A stretch of 64,000 bases of DNA from a virus (IMGVR_UViG_3300015214_000024:297787-361786), one strand, 5' to 3'. Positions 1 to 15,388 are shown, counted from the stretch's first letter. Numbers and translations: made by a program. The notes: generated by a model from the letters alone, not told the origin.

Positions 1-351
1 AGGTATTTTCGTAACTTTGTCAATAATGTCGTCAAAATCATCAGTCATATGCCAATTGAGATCTTCACTAAATTCATCCCATTTGATATTACGCTGTTTT
101 GCTTCTTCCTTATAAGCATCTAAATAGTCCAAGTCAATCCACCTGTAGCGGAGTTCACCTTCATAAGTTTCGCTGATTGAAATTTCATATATTTGCTGTG
201 TTTGAGTATCAAAAACTGCGCTAATATGAAAATTATCATCTGAACTATCAAGGAATCGTGCATTTGGACCAAAACATTTCCAAAGGAATTCACTTCCGTC
301 AGTAATTTTGAAATCAATTGCTTTTGTGAAAGCTTCCATTTGTTTTGACAT
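1..351 (-). CDS. hypothetical phage protein, partial (runs off window)
   Basis: ATG at 351-349 overlaps the TAA of the upstream ORF (TAATG); open frame MSKQMEAFTKAIDFKITDGSEFLWKCFGPNARF... to position 1. Confidence 0.75.
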   Translation of the reverse strand, partial: MSKQMEAFTKAIDFKITDGSEFLWKCFGPNARFLDSSDDNFHISAVFDTQTQQIYEISISETYEGELRYRWIDLDYLDAYKEEAKQRNIKWDEFSEDLNWHMTDDFDDIIDKVTKIP

Positions 352-554
352 TAGATTGCCTCCAAACAATGCTCAGTGATTGAAACAGCCTTCCAGCCAT
401 CGCCATATCCATTGTTATATGGCGTATCCAGTTCTACGATGAACACTGTCATACCAGGAGCGTCAAATGCCACTCCGATTGTGGAACCTTTAATACCATC
501 CATGTCACCGCCAGTACGAACAAGCTTAACACGCTGATTAGGTGAGAATTTCAT
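351..554 (-). CDS. hypothetical protein
   Basis: 67-aa ORF with AAGGA SD, coupled to the next gene. Confidence 0.7.
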   Translation of the reverse strand: MKFSPNQRVKLVRTGGDMDGIKGSTIGVAFDAPGMTVFIVELDTPYNNGYGDGWKAVSITEHCLEAI

Positions 555-577
555 TTTCAGTCCTTTCGATTATGTTG

Positions 578-661
578 CGGAGTAGTGGGGATTCGAACCC
601 CATACCTTGCGGTACCCTCTGTTTTCGAGGCAGTGTTAGAACCTATCTAATTACGTACTCC
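578..661 (-). tRNA. tRNA-Ser(CGA), non-canonical 8/4 fold, possibly degenerate
   Basis: acceptor GGAGTA(C)GT/ACTACTCC (8 bp plus bulge), D-stem TTAGA/TCTAA, loop CTCGAAA, long V-arm, T-arm GGGG-TTCGAAT-CCCC; anticodon stem has two mismatches; CCA not encoded. Confidence 0.7.
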
Positions 662-892
662 AAAATTGTCAACCAGTTTTACTAATTCTTTTTCAGCCAA
701 ATACATTTCAACTTTAGTATTGTAAAACCTTAATATTTCTTTATTAAAATTATCAATTCCATATTTTTCAATAGCATATCTTATTCTTTTACCAGAACCC
801 ATATAACCATCATCGAGATTTTTAGTCGAATGGGCACCAATGTAAAACTTACCATTTATTTGGTTTGTTATTTTATAAACATAGTAAAACAT
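647..892 (-). pseudogene. truncated GIY-YIG (Seg-like) homing endonuclease
   Basis: YVYKITN...FYIGAH...DDGYMGSG catalytic domain only (81 aa); frame ends inside the tRNA-Ser(CGA) gene. Confidence 0.7.
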
Positions 893-930
893 ATTTTCAA
901 ATCCGGCGCGCTTGTCCGGTCAATCTTCCA

Positions 931-1122
931 TTAGTGTGAATATCTACATTCACTTATGCTATCACATTCAAATCCTGGAGCACCACAAATTGAACAGTCA
1001 AGCTTGGTTTGTCTAAACCATTCCTTTTTGCCGTTATGTGGATTGATTTCACAATAAAGTTCATTAATCCTGCCTGGTGACTTGAATGATCCAAACAACC
1101 AACTTAGCACTTTACCAAACAT
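931..1122 (-). CDS. small Cys-rich hypothetical protein
   Basis: 63 aa, strong AAGGAG SD, CxxC motif. Confidence 0.65.
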   Translation of the reverse strand: MFGKVLSWLFGSFKSPGRINELYCEINPHNGKKEWFRQTKLDCSICGAPGFECDSISECRYSH

Positions 1123-1171
1123 AGCATCTCCTTTCCTTTCTGTCTATAAAGGAAGAAATGAAATATGTCAA

Positions 1172-1263
1172 TGGCGGACAGTGAGGGATTTGAACCCTCG
1201 GAACCCCTTACGAGGTTCGGCACATTAGCAGTGTGCTGGTTTTAGCCACTCACCCAACTGTCC
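1172..1263 (-). tRNA. tRNA-Ser(GCT), canonical 7/5
   Basis: GGACAGT/ACTGTCC acceptor, GCACA-CTGCTAA-TGTGC anticodon arm, long V-arm, encoded GCCA. Confidence 0.95.
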
Positions 1264-1271
1264 ATAAAATT

Positions 1272-1361
1272 TGGAGGAAGACGGGATAATCGAAATCCAC
1301 ACCATATTTCAGGTGCCCACTCCTTAGCAGGGAGGTCCAGAACCTTTCTGGTTCATCTTCC
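1272..1361 (-). tRNA. tRNA-Ser(GCT), non-canonical 8/4 fold
   Basis: acceptor GGAAGATG/CGTCTTCC (8 bp), D-stem CCAGA/TCTGG, loop CTGCTAA, T-stem GGAT/ATCC (4 bp), TCCA end. Confidence 0.88.
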
Positions 1362-1366
1362 ATATA

Positions 1367-1487
1367 TACAACAAAGACAGGATTCGAACCTACGTGGTCC
1401 CAGGGCGTCAAATTAATTTGTCCGGATCCTAAGACCATCCCGCTTCTGGGCGGGCTACCTTAAACCTATCTCAGCCACTTCATTGTA
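1367..1487 (-). ncRNA. tRNA-like RNA with ~45-nt variable arm and 6-nt anticodon loop
   Basis: 10-bp terminal stem TACAATGAAG/CTTTGTTGTA, D-like arm, CCCGC-CCAGAA-GCGGG, TGGTCTTAGG...CCTGGGACCA hairpin, GTAGG-TTCGAAT-CCTGT. Confidence 0.65.
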
Positions 1488-1488
1488 T

Positions 1489-1579
1489 TGGAGGAGCCGT
1501 GGGTACTCGAAACCCATACCGTTTTTTAGGTATCAACCGCTTTCCAGGCGGTGGTTGCGCCCTGGCAACTAACGACTCC
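1489..1579 (-). tRNA. tRNA-Ser(GGA), non-canonical 8/4 fold
   Basis: acceptor GGAGTCGT/ACGGCTCC (8 bp), D-stem GTTGC/GCAAC, ACCGC-CTGGAAA-GCGGT, T-stem GGGT/ACCC, TCCA end. Confidence 0.88.
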
Positions 1580-1585
1580 GCAAAT

Positions 1586-2257
1586 TTAAACTACTGTTCT
1601 TCCTTTATACCATCCTATTGGAATTACCATATCCTTTTTAATTTTCTGGTTTTTAGATCCGTCAGTAATCCACATAGTTCCGAATTGTGAATTTTTCCTT
1701 CCAGTTTGGAAGCCATCATTTTTTTCTTTCCATTTTTTAATAGCACTATCAGATTTAGATAATTTACTAAATTCTTTAGCTTTTTCTGGATTCAAGCTAT
1801 GGAATTCTTTCATAGCTTCAGAACCTTTAACCCATCCTTTACATTCCACAAACCGCAATCTTGCTTTTTCAAGTATCCATTCATAACCTGGTTTACCAAA
1901 TGGTGAAATAAATTTATTCCATTCTGCCTTAGTTTCAAATCCTCGATCTTTGTAATAAGAGCCTTCTAAGTTGTATATTGTAAAGCCACCAGTTCCGCCA
2001 AGCATTAAATTATAAGTATTGTTATCTTTTACAAAATCTTCGTTAACTATTTCACGTTCTTTATTATTCATATCATTTTCATTATCAAAAATATATAATG
2101 TTTCTTTATCAAAGTTTTTTATTCCATATTTTTCTATAGCAGATTTTATTAATTTTCCTGAACCCATATAGCCATCATCTAAATCATCAGTAATATGCTT
2201 GCCAATATAGATCTTACCATTTAGTTTGTTTGTTATTTTGTAAATTATATTAAACAT
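1586..2257 (-). CDS. GIY-YIG (SegB-like) homing endonuclease
   Basis: IIYKITN...IYIGKH...DDGYMGSG...YNL; C-terminal GTMWITDG...GWYKGR DNA-binding motif; start reset to 2257 because the longer ORF overlaps a tRNA. Confidence 0.85.
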   Translation of the reverse strand: MFNIIYKITNKLNGKIYIGKHITDDLDDGYMGSGKLIKSAIEKYGIKNFDKETLYIFDNENDMNNKEREIVNEDFVKDNNTYNLMLGGTGGFTIYNLEGSYYKDRGFETKAEWNKFISPFGKPGYEWILEKARLRFVECKGWVKGSEAMKEFHSLNPEKAKEFSKLSKSDSAIKKWKEKNDGFQTGRKNSQFGTMWITDGSKNQKIKKDMVIPIGWYKGRTVV

Positions 2258-2277
2258 AAAAATCCATTCAATTTTTG

Positions 2278-2364
2278 AGGACAGTGTGGGATTCGAACCC
2301 ACGGGACCCTCGCAGGTCCTCCGGTTTTCAAGACCAGTGCAATCGGCCACTCTGCCAACTGTCC
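2278..2364 (-). tRNA. tRNA-Ser(TGA), canonical 7/5
   Basis: GGACAGT/ACTGTCC, CTGGT-CTTGAAA-ACCGG, long V-arm, GTGGG-TTCGAAT-CCCAC; CCA not encoded. Confidence 0.93.
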
Positions 2365-2372
2365 ATATATTT

Positions 2373-2461
2373 TGGCGGAGGGTAGGCGGAATCGAACCCC
2401 TGACCTTACGGTTCCACTAGTTTTCAAAACTAGGTGTGCATCCCCGGCACAATTACTCTCC
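2373..2461 (-). tRNA. tRNA-Ser(TGA), non-canonical 8/4 fold
   Basis: acceptor GGAGAGTA/TACCCTCC (one A-C mismatch), D-stem TGTGC/GCACA, CTAGT-TTTGAAA-ACTAG, bulged 4-bp T-stem, GCCA end. Confidence 0.8.
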
Positions 2462-2462
2462 A

Positions 2463-2490
2463 ATAAAAAACCCCCTAGTTTCCTAGGGGG
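2463..2490 (-). terminator. intrinsic terminator of the serine attenuator
   Basis: CCCCCTAG-GAAA-CTAGGGGG followed by TTTTTTATT, immediately before the first tRNA-Ser. Confidence 0.9.
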
Positions 2491-2524
2491 TGTAACAGCA
2501 AACCTATCATTCAATAGATACTGT

Positions 2525-2572
2525 TCACCCCATTGGGATGGACGAACTACTGGATGATGAAATAATGAACAT
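2525..2572 (-). CDS. attenuator leader peptide MFIISSSSSSSIPMG
   Basis: ATG TTC ATT ATT TCA TCA TCC AGT AGT TCG TCC ATC CCA ATG GGG TGA; CAGGAAAG SD upstream. Confidence 0.85.
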   Translation of the reverse strand: MFIISSSSSSSIPMG

Positions 2573-2607
2573 TCGTTTAATCTTTCCTGTTTGCTTTAAC
2601 TTTGTTC

Positions 2608-2636
2608 AGCTTATATTCTATTTAGTATTCTGTCAA
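2608..2636 (-). promoter_or_regulatory. sigma70-type promoter for the leader/tRNA-Ser operon
   Basis: TTGACA-17 nt-TAAGCT; a CTAAATA late-type motif lies within the spacer. Confidence 0.7.
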
Positions 2637-2665
2637 TAGTAAAATAATAAAAATTCTGATTTATT

Positions 2666-3304
2666 TTATGACCAATATTCATATAAACCAGACTGCATAG
2701 TATCCAGATATTCATCCCGGACACCGAAAAACTTAGCCAAATATCTTACCAACAAAGGTGTTGGAGGGGCGAATCGATCGATCAAATCCTCTTTGGAAAA
2801 ATCAATTATATCACCATTTTCCATTGTGATTGATTGCTTAACGTCACGAAACAGCCTAATTGCTTCTGATTTAACCTTTTGTCCATTTGGTATGTATGTC
2901 ATTTTACCGTGCTCATATGGATAAATCCCATATGGAATATATTTGAATGACGGTTCCATACCATAATCATTATTCAAAACTGAATTATAGTAATCCATTG
3001 AATCATTATATCGGTGCCAATCAGGCATACCAATATGGGTAAAAAGCATTATATTAGATAAGCCAGTTTCAGTTTGGTAACTCACAAACTGACTCATATA
3101 TGCTGATAAATTTTGTTTGTGCCCATCGCGCCAATAAAGTCTCATTTCAATATCTGAATCATCTTCAATCAGACGCAGAAAGGTATTAAAGTCAGAAATT
3201 TGGGTTTCAAGAGCATATTCGTACTGGTCCCAATCAACTCTCGGGTCGCGATCCACGATATTATGAAAACCGTAACCTAATACTTTATGAATCTTAAAGC
3301 CCAC
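2666..3304 (-). CDS. hypothetical protein
   Basis: 212-aa ORF, no recognised motif. Confidence 0.75.
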   Translation of the reverse strand: MGFKIHKVLGYGFHNIVDRDPRVDWDQYEYALETQISDFNTFLRLIEDDSDIEMRLYWRDGHKQNLSAYMSQFVSYQTETGLSNIMLFTHIGMPDWHRYNDSMDYYNSVLNNDYGMEPSFKYIPYGIYPYEHGKMTYIPNGQKVKSEAIRLFRDVKQSITMENGDIIDFSKEDLIDRFAPPTPLLVRYLAKFFGVRDEYLDTMQSGLYEYWS

Positions 3305-3353
3305 AAACTTCCCCCATTTTCTTATCCTCTAATAGCAGCTTTGTATTTTAATG

Positions 3354-4598
3354 TCAAAGGATAATTCGATCTGGAAAATATGGTTGAAGTATTTCAGGTA
3401 TTGCCACCCAGCCATCTGGCTGTTGATAATTTTCCAAAATAGCTACAAGAGTCCGACCAACAGCCAATCCGCTACCATTTAATGTATGGACCAAAGTAGT
3501 CTTTTTATCTCCTGGCAGCTTTACTCGTGCGGCCATACGTCGGGCCTGAAAATCGCCACAATTGCTGATCGAGCTAATTTCACGCCAAGCCTTTTGGCCC
3601 GGAAGCCAAACTTCCAAATCGTAAGTTTTTCTGGCGCCAAATCCCATATCACCCGCTGCTAATAAAACTCGCCTAAATGGTAAATCAAGTTTCTTAAGAA
3701 TCATTTCCGCAGCATTCAGCATATGCTGATGTTCATATCCGCTTTGGTCTGGAGTAGAAATGGTTACCATTTCTACTTTATGGAATTGATGTTGGCGTAT
3801 GAGCCCGTGAGTGTCTCTACCAGCACTGCCTGCTTCGGCCCTAAAGCACGGTGTTAGTCCAACCATACGCAATGGTAAATCACCATAATCCAAAATTTGA
3901 TTGGCAACCAAATTTGTCATTGGCACTTCGCCAGTTGGGATCAAATATCGACCATCTACGGTTTTAAACAAGTCCTCTTCAAATTTTGGAAGCTGACCGG
4001 TACCAAACATCGTTTGCTGATTCACCAAATAAGGAACATCTACTTCAGTAAAACCATATTCCTCAACGTGATGGTCAATCATAAACTGACCAATCACTCG
4101 GTGCAATTTAGCCAATGTGCCAGTCATCACATTAAAGCGAGTCCCTGCGATTTTTGTTGCTTGTTCAAAGTTAAATCCTGGAAGAAGGTGATGCTCTTTG
4201 ATTTCAAAATCAAATTCAGGAATGTCATCCTGATGTACTACAAGATTATTTTCCTCACCACCTTCTGGAACATCGTAGTGTGGAATATTTGGTACCTTAG
4301 CCCAAATGCTATCACGAACATCTTTCAACAAATCAACATTTTTCTTATAATGATCAATTTGCTCATTAGTTGCTTTTGCTTGTTCTTTCAGATCTTCAGC
4401 AGGTAATTTAAGCCTGTATGCATCACCAATTGCTTTATTAAGGTTGTTTCGTTCATTTTCAGCAGCTTGCAACTTTGTTGTATAAAGACGAAATTGCTCA
4501 TCAGCCCAAAACAAATCGTCAATTGCTCCTCCGCCGCGCCCCTTTAATGCACGTTTTACGGCTTCGCGATCAGTTCTGACATCATCAATATTAATCAT
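3354..4598 (-). CDS. serS: seryl-tRNA synthetase
   Basis: N-terminal coiled coil; LIPTGEVP, FRAEAG (motif 2), HQFHKVE, REISSISNC, HTLNGSGLAVGRTL (motif 3). Confidence 0.98.
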   Translation of the reverse strand: MINIDDVRTDREAVKRALKGRGGGAIDDLFWADEQFRLYTTKLQAAENERNNLNKAIGDAYRLKLPAEDLKEQAKATNEQIDHYKKNVDLLKDVRDSIWAKVPNIPHYDVPEGGEENNLVVHQDDIPEFDFEIKEHHLLPGFNFEQATKIAGTRFNVMTGTLAKLHRVIGQFMIDHHVEEYGFTEVDVPYLVNQQTMFGTGQLPKFEEDLFKTVDGRYLIPTGEVPMTNLVANQILDYGDLPLRMVGLTPCFRAEAGSAGRDTHGLIRQHQFHKVEMVTISTPDQSGYEHQHMLNAAEMILKKLDLPFRRVLLAAGDMGFGARKTYDLEVWLPGQKAWREISSISNCGDFQARRMAARVKLPGDKKTTLVHTLNGSGLAVGRTLVAILENYQQPDGWVAIPEILQPYFPDRIIL

Positions 4599-5244
4599 TC
4601 CAAAAATCCTTCATTCCACCGTTCATATACGACTTGGCTGTAATAATTTTTCCCGTTCTTTCATCCCAAGCCTGATTATCCTGAAAACGAATTGTGCGAA
4701 TTTTATCACCACGCTGGCCAGAGCCACTTTCCTTATACTGTTCAGTCTTTAGACTAGAAAGAACAGCATTATCCATTGATTGTAACTTATTTGCTAGGGC
4801 CTGTCGAGCCTCTTGGTAATTAGATTCTCTAGAACGGCTTTGGCGTACTTCCACCAAACCTGTTGGAATATGGATCAATCTGCAGGAACATTGGTGCTTA
4901 TTTCGGTGTTGGCCGCCTTTACCTGTCCCAGAAAACCATTCTACCCGTAAATCGCTATCGCGTATTTCAGTTTTTTCCATTTTGGCGTCAATTAAAGCGA
5001 CCTTTACTGACGAAGTATGGACTCTGCCCCTGCGCTCAGTTGGAGGTACACGCTGGAAACGATGGCCGCCAACTTCTTTCTTAAGATTGTCGTTTGGTTT
5101 TTTTAGCTCAATAAAATAGCCTTGACCCTCTGGGCCGTGGCGGTGCAGTCAGCCATCAAGAGCTTTGAGGTATGAGTGATACAAATCTTTCGCTAATAAT
5201 TGAGCGTCTTTTCCGCCTTCACCAGGCATAATAACTAATTTCAT
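4591..5244 (-). CDS. RF1-like class I peptide chain release factor lacking domain 1, with in-frame UGA at codon 32 (5151-5149)
   Basis: single frame MKLVIMPGEGGKDAQLLAKDL...DG*LHRH...EVGGHRFQRVPPTERRGRVHTS...GKGGQHRNK...RGDKIRT; AAGGA SD; the ORF track catches only 4591..4980. Confidence 0.85.
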
Positions 5245-5374
5245 ATTTTTATTCCTTTTTAAAACAATAGAGTATTATCGTGTGAAATGTTAAATCACAA
5301 CGTCAATTTTCTTTAAGTTCTAAAAAAGAGTAAAACACATTAATCAGTCCTTTTTGATTTCTACCAATATTTAG

Positions 5375-5815
5375 TCAATTCTGTTCCCAGTTTTTTAAAA
5401 TATCTGAACTTGAATTTGCTTTGTTTTCACCACCAACACCAAAAACTAACTGAACATCATACCGGAGAGCAGTTTCTGATTCTGGAATATTATCTTTAGT
5501 CCTATCGCCCCCATTCATAAATAAAATTTCATCACGTGGAAACATAGTTCGTGCCTTAACAATTGCCCAATCAGCAGATCCAGTAAGATCATCCTGTTCA
5601 GTCATCGGAACAACTAAATTAACACTTCGCATATTGCTTAAAATAGCACATCGAGTGGCCTGTGTCATAAATGGCTTGCCTTTCTTTCGAGTGAGCCAAG
5701 CATCAGAATTCGGAAACACTAACAGTATATCGCACATAGCTTTTGCAGCATTAATGTAGTCAATGTGACCTTCGTGTAAAGGATCAAAGCCACCAGTTAC
5801 TATGCCAATTTTCAT
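5375..5815 (-). CDS. HIGH-motif cytidylyl/adenylyltransferase family protein
   Basis: TGGFDPLHEGH, NSDAWLTRKKG, NGGDR, SSS motifs. Confidence 0.9.
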   Translation of the reverse strand: MKIGIVTGGFDPLHEGHIDYINAAKAMCDILLVFPNSDAWLTRKKGKPFMTQATRCAILSNMRSVNLVVPMTEQDDLTGSADWAIVKARTMFPRDEILFMNGGDRTKDNIPESETALRYDVQLVFGVGGENKANSSSDILKNWEQN

Positions 5816-5933
5816 TTGTTATTCCTCTAAAAATTTCTTCAACCTTAACAGGTTTTTACTAATTTGTCAAATCATATTAACAGCTATTGACGAGCAAGTC
5901 ATTATATTATATAAGATCATCATAACTTAGGAG

Positions 5934-6605
5934 ATGTTTATGACGGCTTGGCGATCAATTCGAAACGAAATTGAAGAAATGGATGCTACATTCGTTCTAG
6001 CCATTTCGGGCGGTGTTGATAGTATGGTCCTGTTGGATTTCTTCACGCGAACTGACGCTAATTTCGTTGTAGCACATTTTAACCACAATTTGCAACCTAT
6101 CAATGTAGAAATGCAAAAGCACGTTATTGATTATTGTATTAAGAACAATATCGAACATTACGTCGGCCAGGGGGTGAGTATTAAACTCAATTCTAAGCTT
6201 AATCATACATCAATTGAGGCTGAGGCACGTAAACAACGATATGATTTTCTTGAAGCTGTTGCTAAATCAGTCTCTAACGGTCGCCAGGCGGTTATTGTAA
6301 CTGGCCATCACCAAGATGATCAAGTCGAAACTGTTATGCTTAACTTATTCCGTGGCGTCGGGCTTCAGTCAGTGTTTATGGAAAAGAATAATGGTAGGCA
6401 ATATAGACCATTTTTAGACATTCCAAAATCGGAATTGTTAGAATGTGCTAGAAAGCGTGGCCTTGCTTGGATTGACGATCCAACCAATGCTGAAAACGAT
6501 GCAGAACGTAACTGGCTCCGCAACGAAATTATTCCACAAATTATGGAACGTAGAAACATCAGTAAAACGATTCCACTTTCTATTGAGAAATACCTCAAGA
6601 GTTGA
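5934..6605 (+). CDS. tilS: tRNA(Ile)-lysidine synthetase, catalytic domain only
   Basis: AISGGVDS PP-loop, HFNH, EAEARKQRY, GHHQDDQVET, RPFL, DPTN, RNWLR. Confidence 0.92.
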   Translation: MFMTAWRSIRNEIEEMDATFVLAISGGVDSMVLLDFFTRTDANFVVAHFNHNLQPINVEMQKHVIDYCIKNNIEHYVGQGVSIKLNSKLNHTSIEAEARKQRYDFLEAVAKSVSNGRQAVIVTGHHQDDQVETVMLNLFRGVGLQSVFMEKNNGRQYRPFLDIPKSELLECARKRGLAWIDDPTNAENDAERNWLRNEIIPQIMERRNISKTIPLSIEKYLKS

Positions 6606-6636
6606 CTTGTCCTGTTTCTTCTGCTAAGATGGATCT

Positions 6637-7773
6637 ATGAAAAACAAATTCAATCCTGATATGGACCTGATCCGAATTGCATTCGAGAATGCCAACGTTC
6701 CTGTGCGACTAGTTGGCGGCTGTGTCCGGGATATGCTGTTGGGCATTAATCCTAAGGATTGGGATATGACCACGCCGGCATTGCCTGATGATATTATCAG
6801 CATCTTGAGAGCAGCTAATATCGAATGCTTTGATATGAGCAACGGTCACGGCACTATTACTGCGGTGATTAACAGTGAGCCTTATGAAATCACTACATTA
6901 CGGCAGGATTTGGAAACTGATGGCCGTCACGCGGTTGTGGGTTTTACTGATGATTGGAAAGTTGACGCTGAACGTCGAGATTTCACGTTTAACGCAATGA
7001 GTATGGATTTTGACGGAGTCATTTATGACTACTTTGGTGGTATTGCTGATCTAAAAGCTGGCCTGGTACGTTTTGTTGGTGATGCTGAAAAGCGCATCCA
7101 AGAAGACTATTTGCGTATTCTGCGTTATTTTAGGTTTTTGGGCCGAATGCCCAAGCCAGAAGCAGACGTAGAAACACTGGCTATTATTTCAGCAAATCGC
7201 CAAGGACTGGCTAATATTTCTGGCGAACGTATTTGGTCTGAAATGAAGAAAATCTTCTCTGGTGAACACGTTGATTTCATTATGGATTTGATGGATCATT
7301 CAAAAATCACCGGTGCTATTGATTTGATGATTAATAAGCCGGCGGTTCCAGCATCTAGGGATCCAGTGACAATTTTGGCAGCGTATATTGATTTTGCGTT
7401 CGTTGAAATTGTGTGCGATCGTTGGAAGCTGTCCAGTAAAGAAGAAAGCCAGTTGGTGTATTTGACCAATTTTCGAAACATAATTGACGATGTCAAGGTA
7501 CTGAAAGAAGCTATTTTTGAAGGTACTGATCGTTATTATGTTTTGGAGTTGATGAAAATTCAACATCGAAAAGACGATTACGAGATTTTGAAAAATTGGA
7601 TCATTCCAACTTTTCCAGTATCTGGTAAGGATTTGATCGAAATTGGTGTAAAGCCAGGCCCAAATATGGGCTTCATCATTAAAGTATTGCGTAAATCATT
7701 TGTAGAATCAAACTATCAAATGACTAAAGAACAATTTCTTTCAATGGTTGATATAGATAAAAGCCCGGAGTAA
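6637..7773 (+). CDS. cca: class II tRNA nucleotidyltransferase (CCA-adding enzyme)
   Basis: VGGCVRD, DWD, RRDFTFNAM, EDYLRILRYFRF; DGRHAVV flexible loop. Confidence 0.9.
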   Translation: MKNKFNPDMDLIRIAFENANVPVRLVGGCVRDMLLGINPKDWDMTTPALPDDIISILRAANIECFDMSNGHGTITAVINSEPYEITTLRQDLETDGRHAVVGFTDDWKVDAERRDFTFNAMSMDFDGVIYDYFGGIADLKAGLVRFVGDAEKRIQEDYLRILRYFRFLGRMPKPEADVETLAIISANRQGLANISGERIWSEMKKIFSGEHVDFIMDLMDHSKITGAIDLMINKPAVPASRDPVTILAAYIDFAFVEIVCDRWKLSSKEESQLVYLTNFRNIIDDVKVLKEAIFEGTDRYYVLELMKIQHRKDDYEILKNWIIPTFPVSGKDLIEIGVKPGPNMGFIIKVLRKSFVESNYQMTKEQFLSMVDIDKSPE

Positions 7774-10736: not shown

Positions 10737-11576
10737 TTACTTACGCCATCCTGGGGGCGGTGCAGCATAAGTTGTAGTGTTTGAATAGCTTGGGAAAGCC
10801 TGTGGTGACGAATTCCTGTAAGGAAGAATAATACCACGAGCTTCAAGACCATTTGCATCATCATAATAAATGCAAACTAGCGCATCAGGGTAATTTGGAT
10901 CGCGCTTTTCAAAAGTAGTCGTAGTGGTTTGAAAAGTTTGCGCATCGCCATATTCAGTACCAAGATTTTGGCTGCTGAATGATTTCATCACGGCGTTATT
11001 ACCAGATGTTAATGTAGTATTCAAAGTGGCAGCACTTCTCGTTCCTCCTGAAGGAGCAGCCATAGCCACACTATCCAAGCCTGATCCTACTACATTGTTA
11101 CATACACTTGATCCTAATGGAGTATTCCAAAGTGGATCACTTGCGGTGCTTGTAAAAGTATAGCTAGGAAATGTATTAATCGGCGGAACATATTTTGGTC
11201 TAAATACCATCATACCTATGACACCAACGTTTTTCTTACCGCGTCCTGTTCGATTAGAATATGATCCTGAGGATGAACCAAATTGAAATTTCGCAGCAGT
11301 GTCTGCATCAACTTTCCAACCAGGAATGTTAAGTGTTTGCCAAGGTTCCAAAACATATCCTTGACTGTCAGCACCGGCAGGCTTTCCATCAATAACGCTC
11401 AAACCATCAACACTTGGAATGGCTAAAATGCGCTCTGGTGAATTGTTTTTAATTCTCAATTCATAATTTGAATTTGTTCGGCCTTCAACAAAGACCAAAC
11501 CCTGATGCTGATATTCAGTCAACGGCTGACCGTTAATAACTAGACTTAGTTCATATTGATTAGTATTATCAAACAT
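10737..11576 (-). CDS. conserved hypothetical protein adjacent to vWA gene
   Basis: 279-aa ORF with GGAGG SD; SVDGLSVIDG, IPGW motifs. Confidence 0.8.
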   Translation of the reverse strand: MFDNTNQYELSLVINGQPLTEYQHQGLVFVEGRTNSNYELRIKNNSPERILAIPSVDGLSVIDGKPAGADSQGYVLEPWQTLNIPGWKVDADTAAKFQFGSSSGSYSNRTGRGKKNVGVIGMMVFRPKYVPPINTFPSYTFTSTASDPLWNTPLGSSVCNNVVGSGLDSVAMAAPSGGTRSAATLNTTLTSGNNAVMKSFSSQNLGTEYGDAQTFQTTTTTFEKRDPNYPDALVCIYYDDANGLEARGIILPYRNSSPQAFPSYSNTTTYAAPPPGWRK

Positions 11577-11593
11577 TGTCGTGTCCTCCTTTA

Positions 11594-12364
11594 TTACAAA
11601 GATTGATCGCGCTCTGCTTGGGTATATGTTGCCGAAGCACGAAGTGCGTCGCCAGCAAACCCTTTCGCATAAGCGGTTCTAGTTCTTGTTGTAATAGAGG
11701 ACAATGCTGCCATTGAGCCAGCCATATTTGAAGTATTGTATTGAACTGTATTATTGGTACCAAAGCCCATTGCACTACCTTCGTGGAAAGCGTCAATGTT
11801 TGCACCCATAAACAAGAACGTCCAATCCTTGCCTTCTGCCTTTTCAACTAAAGCCTTAATAGCTGTTTTATTGAAACGATTAGAGCAATTTTCTTCACCA
11901 TCAGTTAAGATAACGACGATAACGCCAGGACGTTCCGCTTTTTTCTTTGATGAAATTACTGCATTAGCTTTAGTGATATTATCACCAATCGCATCTAGAA
12001 GATTGGTTGATCCGCTTGGTCGATAAGTGCTTGTGGTTAGCGGTTCTACGGTTTTGATGTCTTTGTTTTCGAAAATGTACTTGACTTGTGAGCCGTTAAA
12101 TTTACTTAACGTGAGTAAGCATTCACCATCACCAATTTGCTGTTCTTTTAGCCAAGAATTGAATGAATCGATAGTTTGCTGAGTTACACTAGACATACTT
12201 GAAGATTCGTCCAAAACAACGTGTATCAAAACACCATTTGAACCGGCTTTTTTAATTTTTTCATTGGTGGAAACATTTACTGTTGAAGTAGCAATTGTTT
12301 GTGCTTTTGGAGTGAATTGTGGGAAAGCGTTAGGCATCCCAGATGGAGTACGAATATTTCGCAT
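11594..12364 (-). CDS. von Willebrand factor A domain protein
   Basis: VLDESSSM (MIDAS), TNLLDAIG, ILTDGEEN. Confidence 0.9.
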   Translation of the reverse strand: MRNIRTPSGMPNAFPQFTPKAQTIATSTVNVSTNEKIKKAGSNGVLIHVVLDESSSMSSVTQQTIDSFNSWLKEQQIGDGECLLTLSKFNGSQVKYIFENKDIKTVEPLTTSTYRPSGSTNLLDAIGDNITKANAVISSKKKAERPGVIVVILTDGEENCSNRFNKTAIKALVEKAEGKDWTFLFMGANIDAFHEGSAMGFGTNNTVQYNTSNMAGSMAALSSITTRTRTAYAKGFAGDALRASATYTQAERDQSL

Positions 12365-15254: not shown

Positions 15255-15283
15255 AATATAGTAAACATCTATTACAATGTCAA
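15255..15283 (-). promoter_or_regulatory. sigma70-type promoter
   Basis: TTGACA-17 nt-TATATT. Confidence 0.75.
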
Positions 15284-15292
15284 CTATAATTG

Positions 15293-15388
15293 TGCAGGAA
15301 AGGTGGAATCGAACCACCTTTTATTACGCGCACTGTTAACCTGACGCCTACCCAATAAAAGGTCTGGCGCTACCACCGAGGCCCTGCA
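15293..15388 (-). ncRNA. tRNA-like element (acceptor stem plus T-arm, no normal anticodon arm)
   Basis: TGCAGG/CCTGCA termini; AGGTGG-TTCGATT-CCACCT. Confidence 0.5.

Follow-up and report, generated by a model that had tools for sequence, protein, structure and literature searches.

The leader attenuators of enterobacteria (trpL, hisL, leuL, thrL, pheL and pheM), which belong to amino-acid operons and to pheST, combine a short leader open reading frame (ORF) bearing a run of regulatory codons with mutually exclusive antiterminator and terminator structures, the choice between which is set by the position of the ribosome. They regulate biosynthetic or synthetase genes, and no serine leader attenuator is known to us. 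Ribosomes also govern prfB, the gene of RF2, which is interrupted early by an in-frame UGA and whose output depends on termination at this codon. Features reminiscent of both systems were found side by side on the minus strand of a large phage genome, at positions 5244..578 of a 64,000-nt window (bases 297,787-361,786 of the IMG/VR virus record IMGVR_UViG_3300015214_000024, 455,147 bp, rated complete by CheckV). This stretch carries a short class I release factor (RF) gene interrupted by UGA, the seryl-tRNA synthetase (SerRS) gene serS, a putative leader attenuator with seven consecutive Ser codons, and an array of tRNA-Ser genes. The original prediction had described these parts, all on one strand, as one integrated module of serine decoding. 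Every part was indeed present and every element lay on the minus strand, as judged from domain matches, the TIGR00414 model, RNA folds and ARAGORN calls. With moderate confidence, we read the locus as a supply unit of SerRS and tRNA-Ser, with an attenuator acting on the tRNAs, beside an independently gated release factor.

The leader ORF (MFIISSSSSSSIPMG-UGA, 15 codons, 2572..2525, minus strand) starts with ATG TTC ATT ATT, continues with the Ser codons UCA UCA UCC AGU AGU UCG UCC and ends with ATC CCA ATG GGG before the TGA stop, so that its Ser codons cover those read by the UGA, GGA and GCU anticodons encoded downstream. The sequence GGGGUG, which holds the first two bases of the leader stop codon, pairs with CACCCC around an inner hairpin and forms an antiterminator helix (2531..2487), whose free energy is -23.0 kcal/mol if, as during transcription, the terminator still lacks its 3' arm. 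The same CACCCC belongs to the 5' arm of an intrinsic-terminator-like hairpin (2491..2470) with a 9-bp G+C-rich stem of -17.9 kcal/mol, and the U-tract that follows runs to 2462, abutting the first tRNA, which starts at 2461. As no room for a promoter is left between these two positions, the first two tRNAs can be transcribed only through the terminator. The region folds better than all 200 shuffled versions of it (z = -4.1). Masking by a ribosome was computed to leave the antiterminator intact at each of Ser codons 1-6 and to abolish it on the stop codon (-3.6 kcal/mol). At -7.7 kcal/mol the 1:2 'protector' hairpin offers little stability, therefore readthrough is probably the default state of the untranslated leader. 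Among the seven ATG-initiated mini-ORFs of up to 40 codons with a run of at least five identical residues in the 455-kb genome, only the Ser leader has tRNA genes on the same strand within 800 nt downstream, and these are cognate. A second mini-ORF with a Ser run (genome position 445618) was discarded as the antisense of an acidic gene.

On the basis of these folds, we infer that the leader would be translated and that the switch would respond to Ser-tRNA. If charged tRNA-Ser were scarce, the ribosome would stall within the Ser run, GGGGUG would stay free to pair with CACCCC, and the antiterminator thus formed would let transcription continue into the tRNA genes. With fast decoding, the ribosome would reach the leader UGA and block the antiterminator, and the terminator abutting the first tRNA would form. 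The design, with its short leader ORF, run of regulatory codons and two exclusive structures, is that of the enterobacterial attenuators; the difference would lie in the target, which is tRNA genes in the phage, and in the amino acid sensed. The proposed serine unit would then combine a complete SerRS of the phage, whose translation would start from a Shine-Dalgarno (SD) sequence belonging to serS itself, with the only tRNA-Ser genes of the phage, placed behind a ribosome-mediated transcription attenuator. Since the attenuator lies downstream of serS and of the ORF that follows it (ORF212), it would gate the tRNAs alone.

Several observations weigh against this interpretation. The SD-like AGGA of the leader stands 12 nt before its ATG, a spacing found in just 7 of 390 genes, the mode being 6-9 nt. 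The promoter-like site located about 40 nt before the leader ORF (TTTACT-17-TAGAAT, 2643..2615, minus strand) reached only 9/12 in the consensus scan, and the number of such sites in the region did not exceed that expected from shuffled sequences. The equilibrium fold always favours the terminator, hence the switch has to rest on co-transcriptional kinetics. Moreover, transcription may depend on an RNA polymerase of the phage itself, on which intrinsic terminators may have no effect. The Ser leader was not found in any distant relative, and a scan of 988 regions upstream of tRNA genes for runs of one amino acid revealed no general enrichment (7 cognate versus 75 non-cognate cases). On such grounds, namely the weak SD and promoter and the lack of the leader in distant relatives, the hairpin at 2491..2470 could be regarded as a plain terminator of an RF-serS-ORF212 operon, with the Ser mini-ORF arising by chance and the tRNAs expressed by leaky readthrough or from phage promoters invisible to our scan. 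We find this explanation doubtful. It leaves to coincidence seven consecutive cognate codons immediately in front of the sole tRNA-Ser genes that the genome has, the overlap of the leader stop codon with the antiterminator strand, and the sharing of CACCCC between a helix of -23 kcal/mol and the terminator. An Ile-rich mini-ORF preceding an IleRS-type gene in the same genome also argues against it.

Sequence variation among close relatives bears on the same question. The region has relatives in four further public runs (X3, X5, X6 and X8), at 83-99% DNA identity. The leader changes listed for run X6 (three of the twelve substitutions of its contig not being listed) are TCG to TCA, which keeps Ser, CCA to CCG, which keeps Pro, and ATG to TTG at codon 14, which turns Met14 into Leu. 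None of the listed changes thus interrupts the Ser run, and one is a synonymous Ser change, which is a further point against chance occurrence of the mini-ORF. The terminator stem persists in runs X6 and X8, where it grows to 10 bp through a C-to-U change opposite G and matched insertions in both arms. In run X8 similarity ends at 2531, and the leader is not covered. Within 1-6500, Rfam matched neither a T-box nor any other riboswitch, and searching for relatives with an exact tRNA pattern gave nothing useful.

The array itself contains four tRNA-Ser genes recognized by ARAGORN (anticodons UGA, UGA, GGA and GCU, 2461..1172) and two further tRNA-like sequences, all on the minus strand. It holds the only tRNA-Ser genes of the genome and is separated by 67 kb from the main tRNA island. 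The first tRNA-Ser(UGA) (2461..2373) has a non-canonical fold, was found by ARAGORN in default mode only, and is matched best by the Rfam tRNA-Sec-type model (36 bits); the second (2364..2277) is canonical. They are followed by a GIY-YIG homing endonuclease gene of SegE-like type (2257..1586; Pfam SegE_GIY-YIG, PHROG 314 with E = 1e-36) and, as called by ARAGORN, by tRNA-Ser(GGA) (1579..1489). Next, at 1484..1369, comes a sequence that resembles a tRNA weakly: its T arm is good, its anticodon/variable region is longer by about 39 bases, and its match to the Rfam tRNA model is marginal (21 bits, E = 0.12). It is followed by tRNA-Ser(GCU) (1263..1172; ARAGORN). The order of elements is completed by a 63-aa ORF, a short GIY-YIG ORF of 81 aa, likewise SegE-like (892..647), and a tRNA-like sequence (661..579) that has CGA in its anticodon loop and within which the short GIY-YIG ORF ends. 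The latter sequence was not called by ARAGORN and matched the Rfam tRNA-Sec model with 31 bits (E = 4.5e-4). For both the UGA sequence at 2461..2373 and the CGA sequence at 661..579, the tRNA-Sec-type model outperformed the general tRNA model, and each accompanies canonical tRNA-Ser genes; together they resemble an additional, non-canonical set of SerRS substrates. In run X6 the long GIY-YIG ORF and both UGA tRNAs are present at 99.9% identity. TCA is the commonest Ser codon of the phage (33%), in keeping with two genes for UGA-anticodon tRNAs. The original prediction named toxins directed at tRNA-Ser, SerRS inhibitors and the demand of Ser/Thr-rich fibre proteins as possible selective pressures; Ser does make up 14-15% of the products of ORFs at 37.9-41.1 kb, but in the proteome as a whole its share, 7.3%, is unremarkable.

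The second component of the proposed unit, serS (4598..3354, minus strand), encodes a full-length, bacterial-type SerRS of 414 aa with the Pfam domains Seryl_tRNA_N and tRNA-synt_2b. It scored 452 bits on TIGR00414 (cut-off 302), with residues 1-407 covered. Its ATG (4598-4596) precedes the TAA stop of the RF gene (4593-4591) within an 8-nt overlap, ATGATTAA, exactly as had been noticed before. The accompanying statement that serS has no obvious SD of its own turned out to be wrong. The sequence AAGGA (4611..4607) stands 8 nt before the ATG, and this spacing is modal in the genome, where SD 4-mers of 390 long ORFs peak at 6-9 nt. AAGGA at spacing 8 precedes 10 long ORFs of the genome, and an identical AAGGA-8 nt-ATG arrangement occurs at the start of the RF gene. 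A 60-nt segment around the start of serS folds weakly, at -6.1 kcal/mol, and the SD is unpaired with a probability of about 0.6.

These data bear on the proposal, put forward in the original prediction, that serS translation may be coupled to ribosomes that read through the UGA of the RF gene. In its full form, such ribosomes would re-initiate at the overlapping ATG and make most of the SerRS, and two sensors would jointly gate one serine-decoding kit. Obligate coupling presupposes an overlap of stop and start codons, which exists here, and absence of an accessible SD of the downstream gene, which does not hold. As serS possesses a typical SD in open RNA, it is not apparently dependent on the readthrough ribosomes and most likely initiates on its own, independently of UGA readthrough. 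On the other hand, an 8-nt overlap of stop and start is the normal arrangement for translational coupling, because of which some coupling of serS to RF translation may persist, in disagreement with the independence that we favour. Besides the overlap, the integrated scheme could draw on the co-directionality of all parts, on the lack of any terminator-like site from the RF gene up to the leader, and on the layout of the stretch, which is kept in the near-identical run X3 (96-99% identity). Since this layout is kept only in near-identical relatives (83-99% DNA identity), it is uninformative on selection for linkage. Apart from the modal SD of serS, the position of the attenuator after serS, the embedding of the RF gene in a general translation island, and the absence of the linkage elsewhere (see below) all speak against such integration, which we consider improbable.

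The RF gene (5244..4591, minus strand, 217 codons) encodes a factor of RF1 type, composed of the C-terminal end of the Pfam PCRF domain and of the RF-1 domain. Its alignment begins at RF1 residue 92-115, where domain 2 starts, so domain 1 is missing. The GGQ motif of peptidyl-tRNA hydrolysis is present and invariant in the family alignment, and PPT occurs within a conserved QR(V/I)PPTE block, aligned to PVT of T. maritima RF1. By the PxT tripeptide rule, PPT predicts the UAA/UAG specificity of RF1-type factors, not recognition of UGA. The factor shares with RF1 (prfA) the GGQ and PxT motifs and domains 2-4, and RF1 was its best match both in NCBIfam and in PDB (E = 1e-30, followed by RF2 at 1e-15 and PrfH at 1e-6). 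RF1 is, however, a protein of about 360 aa with domain 1, whereas the phage factor has 217 aa and, because it is truncated, its scores on the NCBIfam RF1 models (134 and 127 bits) fall far under the equivalog cut-offs of 400 and 423. In being short and devoid of domain 1 it resembles PrfH (RF-H), the partner of RtcB in the RtcB-PrfH rescue/repair pair, but the match to PrfH is weak (55 bits, against an equivalog cut-off of 167), and the phage factor retains the stop-codon recognition motif. A mini-ORF of six codons, MCFTLF, with an AAGGA-type SD and a TAG stop, the latter being a codon read by RF1-type factors, is located on the minus strand at 5320-5340, 75 nt before the RF start.

Codon 32 of the RF gene (5151..5149) is an in-frame TGA. 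It sits at the conserved Trp of a 'GW' motif, opposite W in the alignment to T. maritima RF1 (1rq0), while the PCRF end and the RF-1 domain flank it on both sides in one shared frame. Homology is unbroken in the same frame across GGC UGA CUG, therefore a frameshift was ruled out; selenocysteine was set aside, the site being a conserved Trp position. The similarity to prfB is accordingly limited to the early in-frame UGA and the dependence of output on its termination: prfB uses an autoregulatory, programmed +1 frameshift on CUU UGA with an upstream SD, whereas the phage gene, of RF1 type, stays in frame at a Trp codon of domain 2. The most economical reading would be that UGA is decoded by near-cognate Trp-tRNA in competition with RF2. 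Full-length RF would then arise only when UGA is decoded at the Trp codon, Trp-tRNA contending with host RF2, and, as the factor is of RF1 type with PPT, this gate would sense host RF2 and Trp-tRNA rather than the activity of the factor itself. The genome also contains a second tRNA-Trp(CCA) gene (genome 215,657-215,730), with a U11-A24 pair in the D-stem in place of C11-G24 of the first copy; U11-A24 is the pair that the Hirsh mutation, a UGA suppressor, creates in E. coli tRNA-Trp, and it may bear on UGA readthrough.

The release factor belongs to a large family, with 1,423 protein hits, 408 viral contigs and at least 492 metagenome stretches. We examined the best 80 of the viral loci and the best 80 of the metagenome loci, with up to 8 kb on each side. 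A TGA was found in frame at the same aligned site in all 80 viral loci and in all 79 metagenome loci in which the N-terminal part was covered (in the 80th it was not), and the gating stop was never TAG or TAA. The preceding codon is almost always Gly, and the base that follows is A in 103 loci, G in 30, C in 26 and T in none (n = 159). In the four further runs (83-99% identity) GGT replaces GGC ahead of the gate, and none of the listed changes touches the TGA. Among protein relatives, the closest (P0001-P0006, 63-95% identity) show 'W' at the site, which may stand for TGG or for a TGA translated under code 4. The true stop is TGA in 13 of the 80 related viral RF genes. Folding around the UGA is just modestly lower in energy than in the rest of the gene (136 distinct RF genes), and a conserved stimulatory hairpin at this site is not established. 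Because TGA occupies the Trp position in 159 of 159 loci, the gate is a selected trait of the whole family, with nothing specific to serine about it.

A single TGG-to-TGA change would suffice to create such a stop, and damage of the gene (a pseudogene), a sequencing error or the use of code 4 by the phage could be considered as its source. We regard this as hardly credible in view of the conservation described above, of the unchanged TGA in the four further runs, and of the ordinary use of TGA in this genome. Read with the standard code, the genome has 390 ORFs that reach 120 aa or more and occupy 73% of its length; they end in TAA (237), TGA (133) and TAG (20). As TGA closes 133 of 390 (34%), including serS and the gene upstream of RF, it is an ordinary stop here, and code 4 was ruled out on account of its frequency. 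Nor was any tRNA with a UCA anticodon detected in the genome or in the 80 viral RF loci scanned for tRNAs.

Recoded phages were reported to carry RF1 or RF2 together with suppressor tRNAs (PMC10746230). Like phages using code 4 or code 15, the large phage studied here encodes a release factor, tRNAs and synthetases, and it has two CUA-anticodon tRNAs and rare TAG; it differs from them in its standard code, in TGA as a normal, frequent stop, in the restriction of in-frame stops to single genes, and in the lack of a UCA tRNA. The two CUA-anticodon tRNAs are encoded at genome positions 15,281-15,358 and 165,512-165,586, although TAG stops account for only 20 of the 390 long ORFs.

Conserved linkage of the RF and serS genes, on which the original prediction had staked itself in advance, was not found. 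A tblastn search with the SerRS of the window detected serS in none of the 160 RF loci, and a related serS (46-49% identity) occurred in just two other viral contigs, which had neither an RF gene nor an adjacent tRNA-Ser. In 121 distinct evaluable loci, the RF gene is followed by a protein gene in about half of the cases, by a tRNA gene in 15, and by nothing close in 46. The neighbouring proteins form numerous clusters unrelated to one another (metallophosphatase, phosphatase-like, RNase H-like and others without a named family), none of them a synthetase; the largest cluster, of 11 loci, is formed by a calcineurin-like metallophosphatase, and others resemble dual-specificity phosphatases or RNase H-like proteins. 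tRNA genes are present in 62 of the 80 viral RF loci, mostly as large arrays on the same strand that comprise tRNAs of all kinds and are not Ser-specific. Judging from this survey, the release factor would be an independent neighbour, whose contact with serS is best explained by clustering within an island.

Such an island is readily seen around the stretch, the region being a general translation island with IleRS-type, LysRS, TilS-like and CCA-adding-enzyme genes. A cytidylyltransferase-like gene (5815..5375, minus strand) lies upstream of the RF gene, and PP-loop (TilS-like) and CCA-adding-enzyme-like genes (5934-7773) flank the stretch on the plus strand. Downstream of it, an 851-aa class I synthetase of the Ile/Leu/Met/Val type and an adjoining class I LysRS are encoded on the minus strand (L164 2387-6530). 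The IleRS-type and LysRS genes lie far from their own cognate tRNAs. There are 69 tRNA genes in the genome, most of them at 180-262 kb on the plus strand. Between serS and the leader lies ORF212 (212 aa, 3304..2666, minus strand), which had no match in Pfam, NCBIfam or PHROG, no relative in viral_contigs and a best Atlas feature score of 0.82, the lead threshold being 0.9. It varies among close relatives and is not covered in runs X6 and X8. The public runs that hold the whole record are landfill metagenomes, and no RNA run is listed among them. As to close relatives, megablast against phages gave just an 82-nt match to an endonuclease, scans of viral_contigs with the RF protein or ORF212 gave nothing useful, and the best relatives in a metagenome scan with the RF protein had at most 52% identity.

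Taken apart in this way, the integrated module of the original prediction survives in part. SerRS does stand beside the complete tRNA-Ser set of the genome, but the release factor does not look like a part of such a module. Likewise, a UGA gate and a Ser leader both exist, but the two ribosome-based sensors have separate targets, the release factor and the tRNAs, respectively, instead of gating one module.

Two other ways of connecting the RF gene with the serine genes deserve attention. Polarity of nonsense codons is well established in bacteria, and it could operate without any coupling of translation: the stop at codon 32 leaves about 560 nt of RF mRNA untranslated, and Rho-type termination within this segment would reduce the transcripts of serS, ORF212 and the tRNA array, so that UGA readthrough would tune the entire operon at the level of transcription. 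An operon-like layout agrees with this idea, but promoter-like sites inside the RF gene (4807..4779, 10/12) and before the leader could feed the downstream genes, and the RF-serS linkage is not conserved; we give such polarity little credence. In a weakened form of integration, UGA readthrough would set the amount of SerRS and of the tRNA-Ser precursor by coupling or polarity, and the Ser leader would fine-tune the array. Were this version true, which seems to us quite unlikely, two ribosome-based sensors would act in series on one kit, perhaps in answer to an attack of the host on tRNA-Ser or SerRS.

Arrangements resembling leaders were also noticed elsewhere. A 16-codon mini-ORF, MKTLNLIKNIRIIKAR, with four Ile codons (L164 6573-6623, that is genome 297,572-297,622, minus strand) precedes the 851-aa class I synthetase gene, and a GGCCAG/CTGGTC hairpin follows it just before the synthetase SD. 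On the plus strand, at about 209,640-209,900 of the genome, a strong terminator (11-bp stem and T-tract) stands 15 nt before the tRNA genes Val-Phe-Ile-Asp-Arg-Ala-Arg. Ahead of the terminator runs a 34-codon ORF, and 17 of its 33 residues are amino acids served by this tRNA block, as compared with about 35% expected; this ORF and terminator are a candidate multivalent leader attenuator. In two related phage contigs (L031, at about 11,540-11,620, and L145, at about 5,160-5,240), homologous mini-ORFs ending with RTTTTG and RTTTTV are accompanied by a hairpin that includes the stop codon, located 33-35 nt before tRNA-Thr genes, with no clear U-tract.

In the literature that we searched, no phage release factor gated by UGA was found, and no leader attenuator placed before tRNA genes. 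A more general lesson concerns the islands of translation genes in giant phages, where adjacency does not amount to functional integration unless synteny supports it. If the attenuator works as drawn, the phage gauges charged tRNA-Ser by means of a test peptide and answers with its own tRNA-Ser. The textbook control of amino-acid operons would in that case extend to tRNA genes, and a concrete rule would be available for the deployment of tRNAs by giant phages. As for the release factor, programmed readthrough in bacteria-infecting viruses has, to our knowledge, rarely been documented, and the conserved UGA of this family would represent a natural, strongly selected readthrough site in such viruses.

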